A stretch of DNA of 64,000 nt from Chloroflexota bacterium (GCA_027623675.1 JAQBVF010000009.1:1-64000); one strand, 5' to 3'; numbered from the stretch's first letter, positions 54,810 through 60,671 are shown. Numbers and translations: made by a program. The notes: generated by a model from the sequence alone, not told the origin.

Positions 54810-55373
54810 CTAGATGGGCAGCGGCAGCTCCGTCAGGTTGTCGGGAAGGCCCACATCGAAGGCGTTGATGTTGAAGGCCAAGGCCGAGTAGTACCCCATC
54901 AGGTTGGTCAGTTCCACCAAGCCCAGGACGCCGAACTGCGCCTTGGCCGCGTCGAACGTTGCCTGGCTGACCCTGTGAGTGCGGAAGAACTCCCGGCCGT
55001 AGTTGACCACCGCCGACTCCTGGTCCGAAAGCCCCGTCAGTTCCTTCTTGTCGCGGAGATTGTCGACCAACGCGTCGCTCACACCGGCCTTGCGGGCATT
55101 GGCCGAGTGGGCGTTCCAGATGAACTGGCAGTCCAACTCCCGGGCGGTCAGTATCATGGCAAGCTCCCGGACGTTGGCCGGCAGGGTGATCTCATCTCCC
55201 CGGAAGTAGGCCCGGTAGTGCTCGCCGCGGCTGGCCAACTCGGGGCCGTTCAGCATGATGGCCACGGGGCCGATGTCCGGCACCACGCCGCCGCGTGACT
55301 TCACCAATTCGTCAAAGGCGGCCAGTTGGTCTTGTGGCACGCTCTCTCTACTGACTATAGGTATTCTCGACAT
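54810..55373 (-). CDS. Carboxymuconolactone decarboxylase family
   Basis: RELAMILTARELDCQFIWNAH, GLVELTNLMGYY. Confidence 0.88.
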   Translation of the reverse strand: MSRIPIVSRESVPQDQLAAFDELVKSRGGVVPDIGPVAIMLNGPELASRGEHYRAYFRGDEITLPANVRELAMILTARELDCQFIWNAHSANARKAGVSDALVDNLRDKKELTGLSDQESAVVNYGREFFRTHRVSQATFDAAKAQFGVLGLVELTNLMGYYSALAFNINAFDVGLPDNLTELPLPI

Positions 55374-55494
55374 TTGATCCTCCCGATCTTCACATTCCTG
55401 ATACCCGCCAACGTCGGGCGGGCACCACATGATACAACAGCCCGCCGGCGTCCGGTGTGACAAGCGATCCGGAACTAAAGTAACCTTGTCCATT

Positions 55495-57012
55495 ATGTCT
55501 TCGACCGACCTGGACCATGCCGGCGGCACCTCCCTGACCCGCAGCCCAAACTACAAGTATTGGGTCTTTGGGGCCTTGGCCATCGGCACGTTCGCATCGG
55601 TGGTGGACCACGGCAGCGTCAACGTGGCCCTGCCGACCATCGCCACCAGATTCCAGACCGACCTGCCGACCATCCAATGGGTGGTCATAACCTACGCCCT
55701 CACCATCAGCGCGCTGCTGCTGCCCATGGGGCGTCTCTCGGACCTTATCGGCCGCCGTAAGGTGTACATCGCAGGAATGGCGGTGTTGGCCATCGGAGCG
55801 GCATTGGCCGGGCTGTCACCCAACCTGGAGATGCTGTTCCCGGCCCGGGTGCTGCAGGGCGTGGGCGCCGCCATGACCCAGGGCACGGGCATGGCCATCA
55901 TCACATCAGCATTCCCGCCCAACGAGAAAGGCCGGGCCATCGGACTGATCATGACCATGGTGGGGGTGGGCGCGGTTGCCGGTCCGGCCATCGGGGGGCT
56001 GGCCGTCGACGCCTTTGGCTGGCGCGCGGTGTTCTTCCTGACCATCCCCTTGGAGGTCATCGGCGTGGCCGTCACTCTGTGGGTGATGCGCGGCTGGGCG
56101 GACGTTCGGGAATCCGGGAGAGCCCGGTTCGACTGGTTGGGAGCCACACTGTCGGCGGGGATATTGGTGGCCTTGCTGATCACCATGACCACCGGCAACA
56201 AGACCGGCTGGTTTTCGCCGGTCATCCTGGCCGCCTTCGCCGGGTCCGCCGCCATGCTCGCCACCTTCATATGGTGGGAATTGCACACCACCGCCCCAAT
56301 GTTGGACCTGCGGCTATTCAAGGGCGTAACTTTCTCGCTGGGCGTGTCGGCGGCTTTCCTGACGTTCCTGGGGTCGTCGGCGGTCCTATTCCTGATGCCC
56401 TTCTATCTGCAGAACGTGTTGGGCTACAGCGCCAAGACCGCCGGCTTTGTCGTGGTGCCCGGAGCGTTATGCATGGCGGTGCTGGGGTCGGTCAGCGGGG
56501 TGCTCTCCGACCGGTTCGGGTGGCGTCCATTCACGGTGGGTGGCCTGGCGTCTTCGGCCACCGGACTTATCATCCTGTCGCGGGTCACCGAGACATCGCC
56601 GCTATGGATGGTGGTGCCGGCGCTGATGCTGATGAACAGCGGCATGGGAACCTTCTATTCGCCCAACTCCAGTTCGGTGATGAACTCGGTCAGTCCCGAC
56701 AAGTACGGCGTGGTGTCCGGGTTCTTGAACCTGGTGCGAAACGCCGCCAACGTCACCAGCATCGCCGTCGCCACCATCATCGTCACCGCCACCATGGGTT
56801 CATTGGGCTTCGAGCCAAGCTTGGAAGCGGTCCGGGGCGGCAGCGAGGGGGTTGGCCACGCATTTACCGTGGGACTCCGCTACGCCTTCTTGGTGATGAT
56901 GGGGATGGTTCTCTCAGCCATGACCATCTCCGCCCTGCAACGGGGACGCTCCGGAGAGGAGGCCGCTGACCCGGCGGCCGACGCCCTGGGAAGGTCCCAG
57001 GCCGACGATTAA
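55495..57012 (+). CDS. MFS DHA2 (EmrB/QacA-like) transporter
   Basis: VNVALPTI, GRLSDLIGRRK, RVLQGVG, GPAIGG, PMLDLRLF. Confidence 0.92.
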   Translation: MSSTDLDHAGGTSLTRSPNYKYWVFGALAIGTFASVVDHGSVNVALPTIATRFQTDLPTIQWVVITYALTISALLLPMGRLSDLIGRRKVYIAGMAVLAIGAALAGLSPNLEMLFPARVLQGVGAAMTQGTGMAIITSAFPPNEKGRAIGLIMTMVGVGAVAGPAIGGLAVDAFGWRAVFFLTIPLEVIGVAVTLWVMRGWADVRESGRARFDWLGATLSAGILVALLITMTTGNKTGWFSPVILAAFAGSAAMLATFIWWELHTTAPMLDLRLFKGVTFSLGVSAAFLTFLGSSAVLFLMPFYLQNVLGYSAKTAGFVVVPGALCMAVLGSVSGVLSDRFGWRPFTVGGLASSATGLIILSRVTETSPLWMVVPALMLMNSGMGTFYSPNSSSVMNSVSPDKYGVVSGFLNLVRNAANVTSIAVATIIVTATMGSLGFEPSLEAVRGGSEGVGHAFTVGLRYAFLVMMGMVLSAMTISALQRGRSGEEAADPAADALGRSQADD

Positions 57013-57028
57013 CCGGCTGACAGTCAGC

Positions 57029-57364
57029 CTATAGAGGACTTTGTCCCAGCAATCCCGCGAACCGCAGGCCCCACAAGACTCCAGCCAGTCCCGTGGACAG
57101 TATCAACGTGACGGTCGCCCGGTTCTTCCACGCCGACCCCCACCAGCTGCCATGAGACTGCGCCAGCCACCAGCCCCGCGCCAACATGAGCACGGTTAAA
57201 GCCAAGAAAGGCCAGGTCATCACCCGCAACGCGGGCGCCAAGGCCAACCCGGCCGACGTTCCCCCCAGAACACCGAGCAGGCCCGGGACCACTCATCACC
57301 AAGGAAGCGGCAACAGTCCACTGAGCAGGCTTACGAACGGCTTTTCCAACGCAAATAGTTTCAT
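57029..57364 (-). CDS. merT: MerT-like mercuric transporter with tandem TGA-TGA (putative Sec23-Sec24)
   Basis: MKLFALEKPFVSLLSGLLPLPW-TGA-TGA-VVPGLLGVLGG...RVMTWPFLALTVLMLARGWW; TGAs at 57298-57293; 3 TM segments; directly after merA. Confidence 0.75.
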
Positions 57365-57503
57365 TGTTTCCCCAACTCTCTCGTCAGATATCTGCCACGC
57401 ACTACGGCTGCTCCGGGTGAGTAAACTCAAGGGCAGCGGTGGAACGGCCAGTCAGATCAGATTTTCCCAAGGCCCGCTGTCTGAAACTCAAGCGCAGGGT
57501 CAC

Positions 57504-58940
57504 CTACTCGACGCAGCAACTCATCTGAGACACATCCCGCGTGAAGGCTTGCGCCGCTCGCTTTATACCCTCGCTCAGGGTCGGAAATACGTGGACGGTA
57601 TCGATTATGTCGTCGATGGTCAGGCTGAATTTCACCGCCATAGTGGCTTCGTGAATCAGGTCCGCGGCATGGGGCGCGACGATGTGAACGCCAAGCACCT
57701 TGGAGTTACTTGGATCGATGACCATCTTGAAAACGCCACGGTCATCCTTGGTGGCCTCTGCCTTTGGGACCGCGTCCATGTAGATGGTGCGGCAAGCGCA
57801 GGCTTTGGTCCTGCGCATCAGCTCCTCTTCAGTGATGCCAACCGACCCCACCTCAGGGTCCGTGAAAACGGCATGGGGCACTTCGTCATAGTTGATGCTC
57901 CTACGCGCGGAAGTCAGCGCATTGTCCGCGGCCAACGCCCCTTCTTTGGCCGCGACCGTCTCCAACGCCATCTTTCCGACACAGTCGCCGGCGGCGAAGA
58001 CGTCCGGGTTATCGGTCTGGTAATACTCGTCGACCTGGATGAAACCGTTTCCGTTGGCTTTCACACCGGCTTTCTCCAGCTGTAACGCGCCGGTATTGGC
58101 CTGGATGCCCGCGGCCAGCAGCAATTGGTCCGCCTCCAGGTCGGTTGCCGTTGTAACAAGACTTCGGTTCCGTTGGACCCCGCTGCCGCCCCGGACCGTG
58201 ACGATCTTCCTGCCGTTCCGTTCAGCCACCTTGTCCACCGTTACACCCACGTGAAACTCGATCCCCTCGTTCTCCAGGTTGCGTTGTAGTTCGGCGGCTA
58301 CCTCCGGCTCCTCACGGGGCAGAATTCGGTCCATGGCCTCCACCACGGTTACCTTCGTGCCAAAGCGAGCGAACATCTGGGCGAATTCCAATCCCAAGGG
58401 CCCGCCGCCAATAACGATCATTGATTCAGGCAGTTCTTGAAGCGCGAGCGCCGAGACGTTGTTCAGCCAGCGAACTTGGTCGATGCCGTCGATCGGCAGA
58501 ACCCTAGTGGAAGACCCGGTGGCGATGATTATCTTCTCCGCTTCGTAGGTCTGACCGCCGGCTTCCACGGCATTCGGCCCAACGAAACTGGCCACAGCCT
58601 CTAGCAGGGTAACCGTATCCAGGCCATCCAGAACGTTGCGGTAATTCCTCTGCCGCAAAGCGCCCACAAGCTCATCCTTTTCTTGGATGGCGGTCTTAAA
58701 ATCGAAATCGGGGCGGCGCCCATTGGAGATAGAGTTGAAATTTGAGTGGGAGCTGTAAAAAAGGTCATTGCCCACGCTGAGCAGGTGTTTACTGGGAACA
58801 CAGCCAACGTTGACGCAGGTGCCGCCCAGGGGCAGGCCGCTGTTGATCATGAGCGCGCTCTTGCCAAGATCCGCCGCTTTGGTCGCCGCTGCGAAGGCCG
58901 CCGCTCCGCCTCCGATGATTATCAGGTCAAGCTTATCCAT
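57504..58940 (-). CDS. merA: Mercuric reductase lacking the N-terminal NmerA domain
   Basis: [13 protein letters not shown] redox centre; C-terminal vicinal pair [15 protein letters not shown]. Confidence 0.92.
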
Positions 58941-59147
58941 GGTCGCCTCTCAGTTATTGTTGTTTTAATCAGGTTAGTTTGGCTTTTGACGAGGGGACAT
59001 TTAGCTCAAGGATGAACACATCCTAAGTGCGCTATTGAAGACTCGAGGCATACCCTCTCTCCACGAGTTGCTTCAGCAATGTTTCGGCGTTACTGGACCG
59101 AAACTTTCCCCCACTGTCTGGATTCCGATAAACGATCGAGGCCTTGA

Positions 59148-59672
59148 TCACAGCGTCCGTTCAATCTCGGTCTTCAAAACGTCGTACGACGTAGCGCCGC
59201 CGTCACGGTAGGAGACGAGTCCATTTCGATCCAGGATTATGGTCGTGCCCAGGCTCGTCACTCCGAACTCCTTGACCAACCGGCCGCCGGTATCGTTTGC
59301 CCAGGTCACATCTTCAGCCCCCTTGCTATGCCAGTAATCGCGCCATTCCTCCACGGAGACCCAGGCGGCGGTATTGATGGCCAGAACCTGGACTCCCTGG
59401 GACTGAAATTCCCGTTGCGCCCGCCCTAAGGCTGGAGCCTCCAGCCCGCAGGTGGGTCAACCGGGAAACGAGAAGTAAAGGACCACGGTTTTACCCAGGT
59501 AGTCGTCCATCGCCAAGGAGACTGCTGGAACAGCTCCGCCGGGTCCGTCGGCGGCCGGAGGGCCGGAATCGTTCGCCCCTGAGACGGCCGTGTTGCCTCC
59601 GCAGCCGGCCAGCGCGGCGGTCAATGCCAACATGATCAGAAAAGCGAGCGCCCTGGGGTAGGTTGATCTCAA
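59148..59672 (-). CDS. TlpA-like thioredoxin-fold lipoprotein selenoprotein, UxxC
   Basis: LAGC lipobox; GKTVVLYFSFPG-TGA(59459-59457)-PTCGLEAPAL continues in frame to FGVTSLGTTIILDRNG. Confidence 0.88.
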
Positions 59673-59687
59673 ATCAGCTCCGGAGGG

Positions 59688-59852
59688 TCAACTTGGAATA
59701 TGGTGGTCAAGCGAAGCGGTCGATCCTGGTACCGGGTCTGGTGTTTCGGGTGGCCCGCTTGGGGACCGGCGGAACACCATGGCGCCCAGCCCGATCATGG
59801 CCGGGATCAAGATACAGCAGATAACCGGAAATGCGGCCAGGAAAGCTCCCAC
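59688..59852 (-). CDS. Small single-TM peptide with vicinal Cys-Cys; could start at 59885 through a TGA
   Basis: VGAFLAAFPVICCILIPAMIGLGAMVFRR...; fills the operon gap. Confidence 0.5.
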   Translation of the reverse strand: MGAFLAAFPVICCILIPAMIGLGAMVFRRSPSGPPETPDPVPGSTASLDHHIPS

Positions 59853-59940
59853 GATTACCTGCTTCGCCTTTCAGAAGTAGTCCATGAAACCGACCGCGGC
59901 TTTTGGCTCCGGTAGAACGCCAATTTCGGTGGTGCGGCCA

Positions 59941-60177
59941 CTATTCAGCCAGCAATTTTTCGAAGCGGGCGCGGTCAAATCCCACCACGACCTCGCCGTC
60001 GATCACGGTAACCGGGGTGGTCAACACACCCAGCTTCATCAACTCGTCCATTGCGGACTTGTCGTTCATGACATCCCGTTCCACAAAAGGAACATCCCGT
60101 TGCAAAAGATAATCTTTTGCCATCTCACAGAAGTGTCAACCGTCGGGTTGGGTGTAAACGAATATCTCGCGTGTCAT
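59941..60177 (-). CDS. Glutaredoxin/NrdH-like selenoprotein, UxxC
   Basis: AAGGAG RBS; MTREIFVYTQPDG-TGA(60138-60136)-HFCEMAKDYL...TTPVTVIDGEVVVGFD. Confidence 0.9.
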
Positions 60178-60227
60178 GAACTCTCCTTACTAAACTGATG
60201 GCTGGCTAAACACCTGAGCGTGGCGTA

Positions 60228-60671
60228 CTACCGAGGACGTTTGACGGCTGGGGCGGTCCGACGGTGTGCGACGTCGCTCTGTTCGATTATCGAGCAGATC
60301 TCCCCTCCCTCGGTCTTGCAGTCGACCAGGCCGATCGAGTGCTCTCTTAGCTCGACCAGGTCGCCTTTGAGGGCTTTCAGGTCTTCTATTGATGCCTCAA
60401 CATCCGATATCTTTTGGTCCAACAGGTCGCGGACGTGGATGCACGTCGCTTCTTTCGCGTCATGCAATCGAAAGATTCCCCGAATCTCATTCAAAGAGAA
60501 CCCCAATCGCTTCGCTTTAAGGATGAATTCCAGCCTACTCAACGACTCCCCATCGTACGAACGGTAGCCCCCAGTTGTCCTTGGGGGCTCCGGCATCAGG
60601 CCTTCGGCCTCATAGAACCTGATGGTCTTGGTGTTCGTGCCGGTGGCGCGGGCCAATTCGCCAATCTTCAC
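60228..60671 (-). CDS. merR: MerR-family heavy-metal regulator
   Basis: IGELA..TIRFYE..GL...RT.GGYRSY; three Cys (EATC, VDC, EICSII) spaced like the MerR Hg site. Confidence 0.9.
   Translation of the reverse strand: MKIGELARATGTNTKTIRFYEAEGLMPEPPRTTGGYRSYDGESLSRLEFILKAKRLGFSLNEIRGIFRLHDAKEATCIHVRDLLDQKISDVEASIEDLKALKGDLVELREHSIGLVDCKTEGGEICSIIEQSDVAHRRTAPAVKRPR

Follow-up and report, generated by a model that had tools for sequence, protein, structure and literature searches.

This study concerns a 64,000-nucleotide stretch of DNA from a marine Chloroflexota bacterium (GCA_027623675.1 JAQBVF010000009.1:1-64000), hereafter called the window, and within it a short gene, located after the MerA gene, whose reading frame contains two adjacent UGA codons. 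An initial annotation, made from the sequence alone, had described this gene as encoding a MerT-like transporter in which the two UGAs, possibly read as selenocysteine (Sec, U), replace the intramembrane Cys-Cys pair of MerT. We refer to the predicted product and its relatives as the UU protein and the UU family. The gene and the elements within it are as follows.

57029 to 57364, minus strand: gene for a predicted Sec-Sec membrane protein of 111 residues, from ATG 57364 to the stop codon TAG at 57031-57029, based on homologs and on coding periodicity on both sides of the pair.
57293 to 57298, minus strand: tandem UGA-UGA, codons 23 and 24, predicted to be read as Sec-Sec; kept across the family and aligned on the Cys-Cys of distant relatives.
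57241 to 57284, minus strand: hairpin 1, a 44-nt stem-loop and candidate selenocysteine insertion sequence (SECIS), with its base 9 nt after the second UGA and 12 nt after the first.
57220 to 57238, minus strand: hairpin 2, a conserved stem of 7-8 bp capped by a GUU loop, located 55 nt past the second UGA.

The start codon (ATG, 57364-57362) has a purine-rich stretch, GGGGA, 6 nt upstream. Codons 23 (TGA, 57298-57296) and 24 (TGA, 57295-57293) are followed directly by GTG (57292-57290). Reading through both TGAs gives the 111-residue product, with the peptide LLPLPW-U-U-VVPGLLGVLG around the pair and no Cys codon anywhere. All of these details, from the start codon with its purine-rich ribosome-binding site to the positions of the TGAs, the surrounding peptide and the absence of Cys, were as given in the initial annotation. 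The same was true of the x-x-Pro that it had compared with MerT: U23-U24-V-V-P27 is present, and P27 is kept in at least 90% of 52 family representatives (at most 80% mutual identity). AlphaFold2 predicted helices at residues 7-17, 22-35, 43-70 and 78-103, with the pair at the beginning of the second segment (pLDDT 62.2, 52-row alignment). A scan for promoters and terminators gave nothing above chance. Identical letters were found in contigs assembled from two public DNA runs, at depths of 9 and 52; these are not independent confirmation, because both runs may be the source sample.

A protein search over 5.8 billion proteins returned 64 relatives of the UU protein. Nearly all were 83-88 residues long, with 61 of the 64 shorter than 90 residues, and most started directly after the pair; therefore, gene callers cut the gene there. 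The sole full-length record, P0013, shows W-W-W where the underlying DNA (L102) has TGG-TGA-TGA. The Trp-Trp given at the pair in the public records P0013 and P0086 apparently came from a TGA=Trp code chosen for the contig by the gene caller, and such translations could mislead homology-based checks. Related loci were collected from three sets of DNA: 401 genomes from the class of the window's organism (6 matches, including 2 spurious ones), a collection with one genome per species (51 loci), and metagenomes (80 loci). This gave a total of 137 loci (L016-L152), among them the window itself (L016) and two duplicates (L061 and L071, of L017 and L018). Fifty of the 51 loci from the species collection were labelled Dehalococcoidia, Chloroflexota/Chloroflexi, Dehalococcoidales or SAR202; the remaining one (L038) was listed as an "uncultured bacterium."

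The pair was present in 127 of the 137 loci, in proteins down to about 50% identity. It was TGA-TGA in 119 loci and TGC-TGA (Cys-Sec) in eight (L108, L109, L121, L136, L138, L146, L147 and L149). The other loci were two chance-level matches (L020 and L021), four with TGA-TGA that were broken downstream (L043, L122, L125 and L127), one with TTA-TGA amid frame errors (L079), and three from which the N-terminal part was absent (L046, L072 and L129). This retention bears out the argument of the initial annotation that two independent nonsense mutations at exactly these codons would be unlikely. The 127 loci yielded 110 distinct proteins, 104 with Sec-Sec and six with Cys-Sec; none had Cys-Cys or Sec-Cys or any other Cys form of the second position, and Cys-Cys was seen only in distant relatives. 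At the first position TGA alternated with TGC, and never with TGG, across the 127 loci; the "WW" of P0013, the form that Trp in a homolog would take, derives from TGA-TGA DNA. At least four of the counted copies had an extra in-frame stop elsewhere (L019, L028, L105 and L150), and copies with an extra TAG or a frameshift may be decaying copies or assembly errors. In two family copies with an extra TAG, the TAG replaces the invariant Trp before the pair.

Mean codon-position entropies were determined from 104 distinct 222-nt segments. They were 1.15, 0.76 and 1.58 for the 22 codons before the pair and 0.83, 0.49 and 1.34 for the codons after it, in the same frame; thus the upstream codons, whose conservation the initial annotation had left in question, show coding periodicity in frame with the rest of the gene. 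P21 and W22 were invariant in the 52 representatives. The codon after the pair was GTG or ATG in 64 of the 104 distinct sequences (GTG in 63) and a non-start codon (ATC, GTC, GTA, ATA, GTT or ATT) in the other 40; in these the next in-frame start lay 1-21 codons further on, inside conserved sequence. Because 40 of the 104 sequences have no start codon there, a restart after the pair cannot be the general rule, and translation from GTG 57292, which the initial annotation had named as a competing possibility, does not fit the family. A frameshift or hop over the pair was rejected as well: the frame does not change across the pair, and relatives carry residues at both positions. From these comparisons we conclude that the gene is real and conserved, and neither an error nor a pseudogene.

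Bacterial SECIS elements are stem-loops that follow the UGA at a short distance and have a G in a small apical loop, and in E. coli their placement follows an 11-nt spacing rule. The hairpin mentioned in the initial annotation proved to be a conserved element at SECIS distance, its base 9 nt after the second UGA. The region of hairpin 1 folded as a single hairpin in all 104 distinct sequences, with a loop of 3-10 nt that begins 25-31 nt past the second UGA and a G within the first two loop bases in 100 of the 104. It contains 13 pairs, with 87.5% of cells paired and seven pairs changed on both sides. In hairpin 2, 94.2% of cells were paired. Of 97 distinct rows, 46 had C-G and 35 had U-A at its central pair (columns 69-77), where a synonymous change in the third position of a Pro codon goes together with the choice of Arg or Gln three codons later. 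Third-codon positions were unusually fixed in the hairpin arms and nearly invariant at hairpin 2. For the 21 pairs of both hairpins, 90.0% of cells were paired, compared with 33-51% when the partners were slid. The covariation score was 0.225 (0.161 in shuffles, with none of 500 reaching the observed value) and 104 cells were changed on both sides (54.5 in shuffles), in a shuffle test that is inflated by the relatedness of the sequences. Rfam gave no family match for the hairpins and nothing relevant in 56900-60400. Three other genes with an in-frame UGA, two in the same operon (see below) and selD, carry the following hairpins.

Sec-thioredoxin lipoprotein gene: 8 bp stem and 3-nt loop, 9 nt after the UGA codon.
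Sec-glutaredoxin gene: 8 bp stem and 3-nt loop, 15 nt after the UGA codon.
selD: 7-8 bp stem and GUC-type loop, roughly 16-19 nt after the UGA codon.

Hairpin 1 has the canonical SECIS-like position, and hairpin 2 has the shape closest to that of the selD element. The idea of one hairpin per UGA was set aside, as the six distinct Cys-Sec sequences retain both hairpins; these forms may, however, descend from UU forms.

The genome containing the window (3.07 Mb, 48 contigs, 91% complete, GC 60.9%) encodes the machinery that the Sec reading of the initial annotation calls for: tRNA-Sec (70.4 bits; identified by ARAGORN as tRNA-SeC with anticodon TCA), SelA (453 bits), a SelB frame of 622 codons, and SelD. 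The selD gene (L012; G000:C3:53424-54344, minus strand) itself has one in-frame TGA, in the context CAG-U-AAK. TGA is an ordinary stop codon in this genome, where it ends 425 of 1682 open reading frames (ORFs) of at least 300 residues; none was found in frame in MerA (478 codons), the MFS gene (527 codons) or the SelB frame, and 25 UU-family genes themselves end in TGA. Reassignment of TGA is therefore not the explanation. tRNA-Sec and SelB were found in all three of the other holders of a UU gene that were examined and SelA in two of them. In the class as a whole, 308 of 401 genomes have SelA, a count that includes one genome flagged as unpublished (G244).

A profile built from the 52 representatives and compared with 1.84 billion cluster representatives gave 58 matches, and the distant full-length matches among them carry (S/A)LPW-C-C-(I/V)-x-P. 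When a 29-member alignment of these LPWCC proteins was compared with the UU family (hhalign 99.6%, E 3.2e-24), Cys-Cys fell on both UGA positions, in agreement with the proposal of the initial annotation that the UGAs occupy the place of the Cys-Cys of MerT. In a quick tree the four Cys-Sec representatives formed one clade (support 97) nested among UU forms, and a long branch separated the Cys-Cys proteins from the UU family. This tree, which was drawn from few alignment columns with a root placed for drawing only and a careful search left unfinished, hints that the Cys-Sec form was derived from UU.

MerT, MerF and MerC bind metal at a Cys-Cys-x-x-Pro motif in their first helix, and MerT of the Tn501 type has another Cys pair in the cytoplasmic loop that joins helices 2 and 3. 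The UU protein matched no Pfam family; its best NCBIfam match was MerTP NF033556 (E 0.055, 13.1 bits against a cut-off of 180), and NF045683 was not among its matches up to E = 1. Among the 52 members, four matched MerC and two matched MerT, all with E 0.12 or worse. Comparison of a profile with Protein Data Bank (PDB) sequences yielded nothing beyond a match to an epimerase at chance level. The family profile did reach P0119 (E 6.1e-4), a MerT-HMA fusion that passes the Pfam MerT model (42.6 against 32.9 bits) and carries an HMA domain. The link to MerT is otherwise transitive and sub-threshold, through the LPWCC family to NF033560, the RC607-type MerT, which LPWCC proteins match near full length (E 3e-9 to 9e-3) with scores far below the cut-off. 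The LPWCC relative P0080 led only to clusters of "hypothetical protein," with MerT-named clusters as weak structural neighbors. The description of the gene as MerT-like thus holds at the level of remote superfamily links; as membership of a MerT family it does not, since no MerT model is passed and the second Cys pair is missing.

The UU gene is the last gene of a minus-strand operon, and beyond it lie two further genes. In the order of the operon, the neighbors are as follows.

60228 to 60671, minus strand: MerR-family metal-responsive regulator (Pfam MerR and MerR-DNA-bind).
59941 to 60177, minus strand: glutaredoxin-like gene with TGA at 60138-60136, context PDG-U-HFC (TIGR02196, E 5e-18; Uxx_star NF041212, E 6.5e-15; both below cut-offs).
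59688 to 59852, minus strand: 54-codon ORF for a one-helix peptide with Cys-Cys then Pro (tblastn).
59148 to 59672, minus strand: thioredoxin-fold (TlpA/ResA-like) lipoprotein gene with TGA at 59459-59457, context FPG-U-PTC (lipobox; family search).
57504 to 58940, minus strand: MerA, mercury(II) reductase core, 478 residues (TIGR02053, 537.5 bits against a cut-off of 454.45).
55429 to 57012, plus strand: MFS transporter gene, converging on the UU gene.
54810 to 55529, minus strand: CMD-family gene, next after the MFS gene.

The regulator matched CadR/PbrR (118 bits), ZntR and MerR (104 bits), all below cut-offs. The TGA of the glutaredoxin-like gene is kept in four related loci, and the product is probably, by its sequence, a selenoprotein akin to the glutaredoxin-like YruB and Uxx-star families; under standard reading the gene is split or truncated. 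The thioredoxin-fold lipoprotein gene, whose in-frame TGA is kept in 13 related loci, also ends with a TGA stop. The 54-codon Cys-Cys peptide has no family match, and tblastn found weak relatives in three related loci; it could be a second mini metal carrier. MerA of the window has no N-terminal metal-binding domain and carries a C-terminal Cys-Cys. In some 20-30 related loci, including ones that lack mer-type genes, the MFS and CMD genes adjoin the UU gene.

A mer-type neighbor, defined as MerR, MerA of at least 50% identity, or the Sec-thioredoxin or Sec-glutaredoxin gene nearby, was found at 17 of the 48 loci from genomes and at 18 of the 75 from metagenomes. The corresponding counts were 15 of the 56 loci flanked on each side by 2 kb or more and five of the eight Cys-Sec loci. 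MerA at that identity adjoins the UU gene in 14 loci, including five of the eight Cys-Sec loci. The closest relatives (L025, L030, L080, L081 and L085) retain the regulator, the Sec-glutaredoxin, the Sec-thioredoxin lipoprotein and the UU gene, and the Cys-Cys peptide ORF is also visible in L025 and L030. The operon of these relatives has no MerA; MerA therefore seems either to have been inserted into a conserved core operon or to have been lost from it. At two other loci the genes upstream of the UU gene encode ArsR and a cation-efflux protein, or CsoR, and many UU loci have unrelated neighbors.

These results suggest that the product is probably a Sec-Sec membrane selenoprotein, distantly of MerT type, and both UGAs are very probably read as Sec. 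The protein would have three membrane helices, with the Sec-Sec pair inside the first, where distant MerT-type relatives bind metal through Cys-Cys. For every UGA that bacteria decode as Sec, a new SelB-Sec-tRNA complex is needed, and the hairpin must lie at a short, fixed spacing from the codon. In the mechanism that we propose, hairpin 1 would recruit SelB with Sec-tRNA, and the ribosome would decode the first UGA, move three bases, and decode the second UGA, with hairpin 1 serving both codons; SelB may also bind hairpin 2, or may bind there instead. The pair would bind Hg(II) or another soft metal in the membrane and hand it inward to the cytoplasmic Sec-glutaredoxin and the C-terminal Cys pair of MerA, while the Sec thioredoxin-fold lipoprotein may serve as the outer acceptor in a MerP-like role. 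We put the chances that the function is transfer of mercury or another soft metal at about even. The fullest version of this proposal combines tandem Sec-Sec insertion from one two-hairpin platform with an all-selenium mercury relay in deep-ocean SAR202-type Chloroflexota, which would run from the Sec-thioredoxin lipoprotein outside to the Sec-Sec carrier in the membrane, the Sec-glutaredoxin inside, and then MerA. It would be the first natural bacterial case, and we advance it tentatively, as a possibility that falls somewhat short of even chances.

Several observations weigh against parts of this interpretation. No MerT, MerC or MerF model is passed by the window protein or the 52 members, and the window protein lacks the second Cys pair and any other Cys; a single extra Cys occurs in only two of the 52 representatives. 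The AlphaFold2 model is poor at a pLDDT of 62.2, and no RNA run is listed among the public runs that carry the stretch. Eight copies have extra in-frame stops or frameshifts (L019, L028, L105, L150, L043, L122, L125 and L127). The hairpin arms encode conserved peptides (PGLLG, AGLA and PALR), so that the pairing could partly reflect protein constraint, and the hairpin structure was derived from the same sequences that test it. SelA was not found in one holder of the UU gene (G021, 95% complete). With the queries used, no mer-type neighbor was found at 31 of the 48 loci from genomes or at 57 of the 75 from metagenomes, and the operon of the five closest relatives is without MerA. Finally, transfer of Hg from a diselenolate to the thiols of MerA has no precedent known to us and may be unfavorable.

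The main alternative keeps the Sec-Sec selenoprotein and assigns it another task, either a membrane redox relay between the Sec-glutaredoxin and the Sec-thioredoxin lipoprotein or the handling of another soft metal or metalloid. In such a relay a diselenide/diselenol would pass reducing power outward, as CcdA or DsbD does for ResA or TlpA. Such a role would suit the MerA-less operon set shared by the closest relatives, the two thirds of loci without a mer-type neighbor, the ArsR with a cation-efflux protein or the CsoR upstream at other loci, and a regulator that scores best on Cd/Pb and Zn models rather than Hg, although below all cut-offs. However, the sole detectable kinship of the protein is with MerT-type proteins, in which Cys-Cys-x-x-Pro in the first helix is a metal site; MerA adjoins the gene in the 14 loci noted above; and searches of Pfam and NCBIfam with the window protein and the family members gave no similarity to CcdA or DsbD. 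We consider this alternative unlikely, with a chance that is still appreciable.

The remaining explanations dispense with selenium or with the full-length protein. If both UGAs were read as an ordinary amino acid, whether Trp or Cys by a near-cognate tRNA or through reassigned UGA, the W-W of P0013 and P0086 would be accounted for. However, the W-W of P0013 is an artefact of the gene caller's choice of code, because its DNA has TGA-TGA; TGA is a frequent stop in the genome and absent in frame from MerA, MFS and SelB; all ten Trp of the 111-residue protein are encoded by TGG; the first position alternates with TGC and never TGG, and distant relatives have Cys-Cys; and the Sec machinery and a SECIS-like hairpin are present. 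We therefore regard this reading as very unlikely. Still less probable is that translation ends at the double stop, giving a 22-residue peptide, and that a separate 87-residue protein is made from GTG 57292. The short database proteins that begin after the pair and the GTG found there in the window and in most distinct sequences are what this reading would predict, but the 40 sequences with a non-start codon, and a next start 1-21 codons into conserved sequence, are not. Moreover, the eight TGC-TGA loci have one stop only, LPW-CC-x-x-P is continuous within one protein in the Cys-Cys relatives, P21 and W22 before the pair are invariant, and the invariant TGG-TGA-TGA leaves no room for a ribosome-binding site. 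A decaying pseudogene with two inactivating stops, for which the minority of copies with further stops or frameshifts might be cited, is hardly credible: the same two codons are kept in 119 loci, whose proteins diverge to about 50% identity; the codon-position entropies indicate purifying selection before and after the pair and contradict the dN/dS near 1 that family-wide decay would require; and synonymous sites in the hairpins are conserved and covary.

If the Sec-Sec reading is true, adjacent UGAs in more than 100 natural genes offer a direct test of the spacing that the Sec system tolerates, and would reveal if one translocation step is enough for SelB to be reloaded. Mercury and other soft metals would be bound very strongly by a vicinal diselenol in the membrane, and such a site would bear on mercury handling by abundant deep-ocean Chloroflexota. 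Because gene callers truncate the UU family after the pair, where nearly all of the 64 database records start, annotation pipelines miss the true protein and with it the predicted metal site.

No report of adjacent, consecutive or tandem Sec or UGA in bacteria was found in the literature searched, which consisted mostly of open texts without supplements, so that an earlier listing is possible; a text search of the portion available of a 2026 review (PMC13188914) gave no UU-type motif. MerT-family selenoproteins with one Sec are already known. In the parts of the sources seen, "putative mercuric transport protein" and "MerP" selenoproteins appear in the GOS and Olavius surveys (PMC2398784, PMC1976440), a PF02411 "putative mercuric transport protein" has one Sec in the motif C/SxxU (for example ABB16073.1; PMC9312934, PMC13188914), and a small group of MerT proteins has Cys-Sec (for example WP_250634603.1; 10.1101/2022.07.06.499078).

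Of the known systems, four come closest to the UU protein. MerT (PF02411; NF010314, the Tn501/Tn21 type; and NF033560, the Bacillus RC607 type) and the UU protein both have about 100-116 residues, three predicted helices (from a low-confidence model in the case of the UU protein), and a first helix with two adjacent ligand residues and x-x-Pro after them, and the gene of the window shares an operon with MerA; the pair is Cys-Cys in MerT, whereas in the UU protein it is predicted to be Sec-Sec and is preceded by an invariant LPW. The LPWCC family (P0080, P0078, P0082-P0085 and others) resembles the UU family in length, in the LPW-xx-(V/I)-x-P start of helix 1, and in the LGRA/G-x-Y-L and ST...LW..R motifs, and differs in having Cys-Cys in place of the predicted Sec-Sec. 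Its members are 27-43% identical to one another and are recorded as hypothetical proteins from several phyla. The known MerT-family selenoproteins (the PF02411 entry, the Cys-Sec MerT group and the MerT/CopZ fusion NF045683) share with the UU family the placement of selenium in a membrane protein of mercury-transporter type, and the Cys-Sec dipeptide of the known MerT group also occurs in the sub-clade of eight UU-family loci. As far as the available parts of the sources show, these proteins have one Sec and match MerT models, whereas the UU family would have two adjacent Sec residues and matches no MerT model. The UxxU protein NF041115, a "putative mercuric reductase" of HMA type, is described in the portion seen of PMC13188914 as having, like the UU protein, two Sec residues in one predicted metal site with a link to mercury; there, however, the fold is that of a soluble HMA domain, the Sec residues are two residues apart, and the UGAs lie 9 nt from each other rather than side by side.

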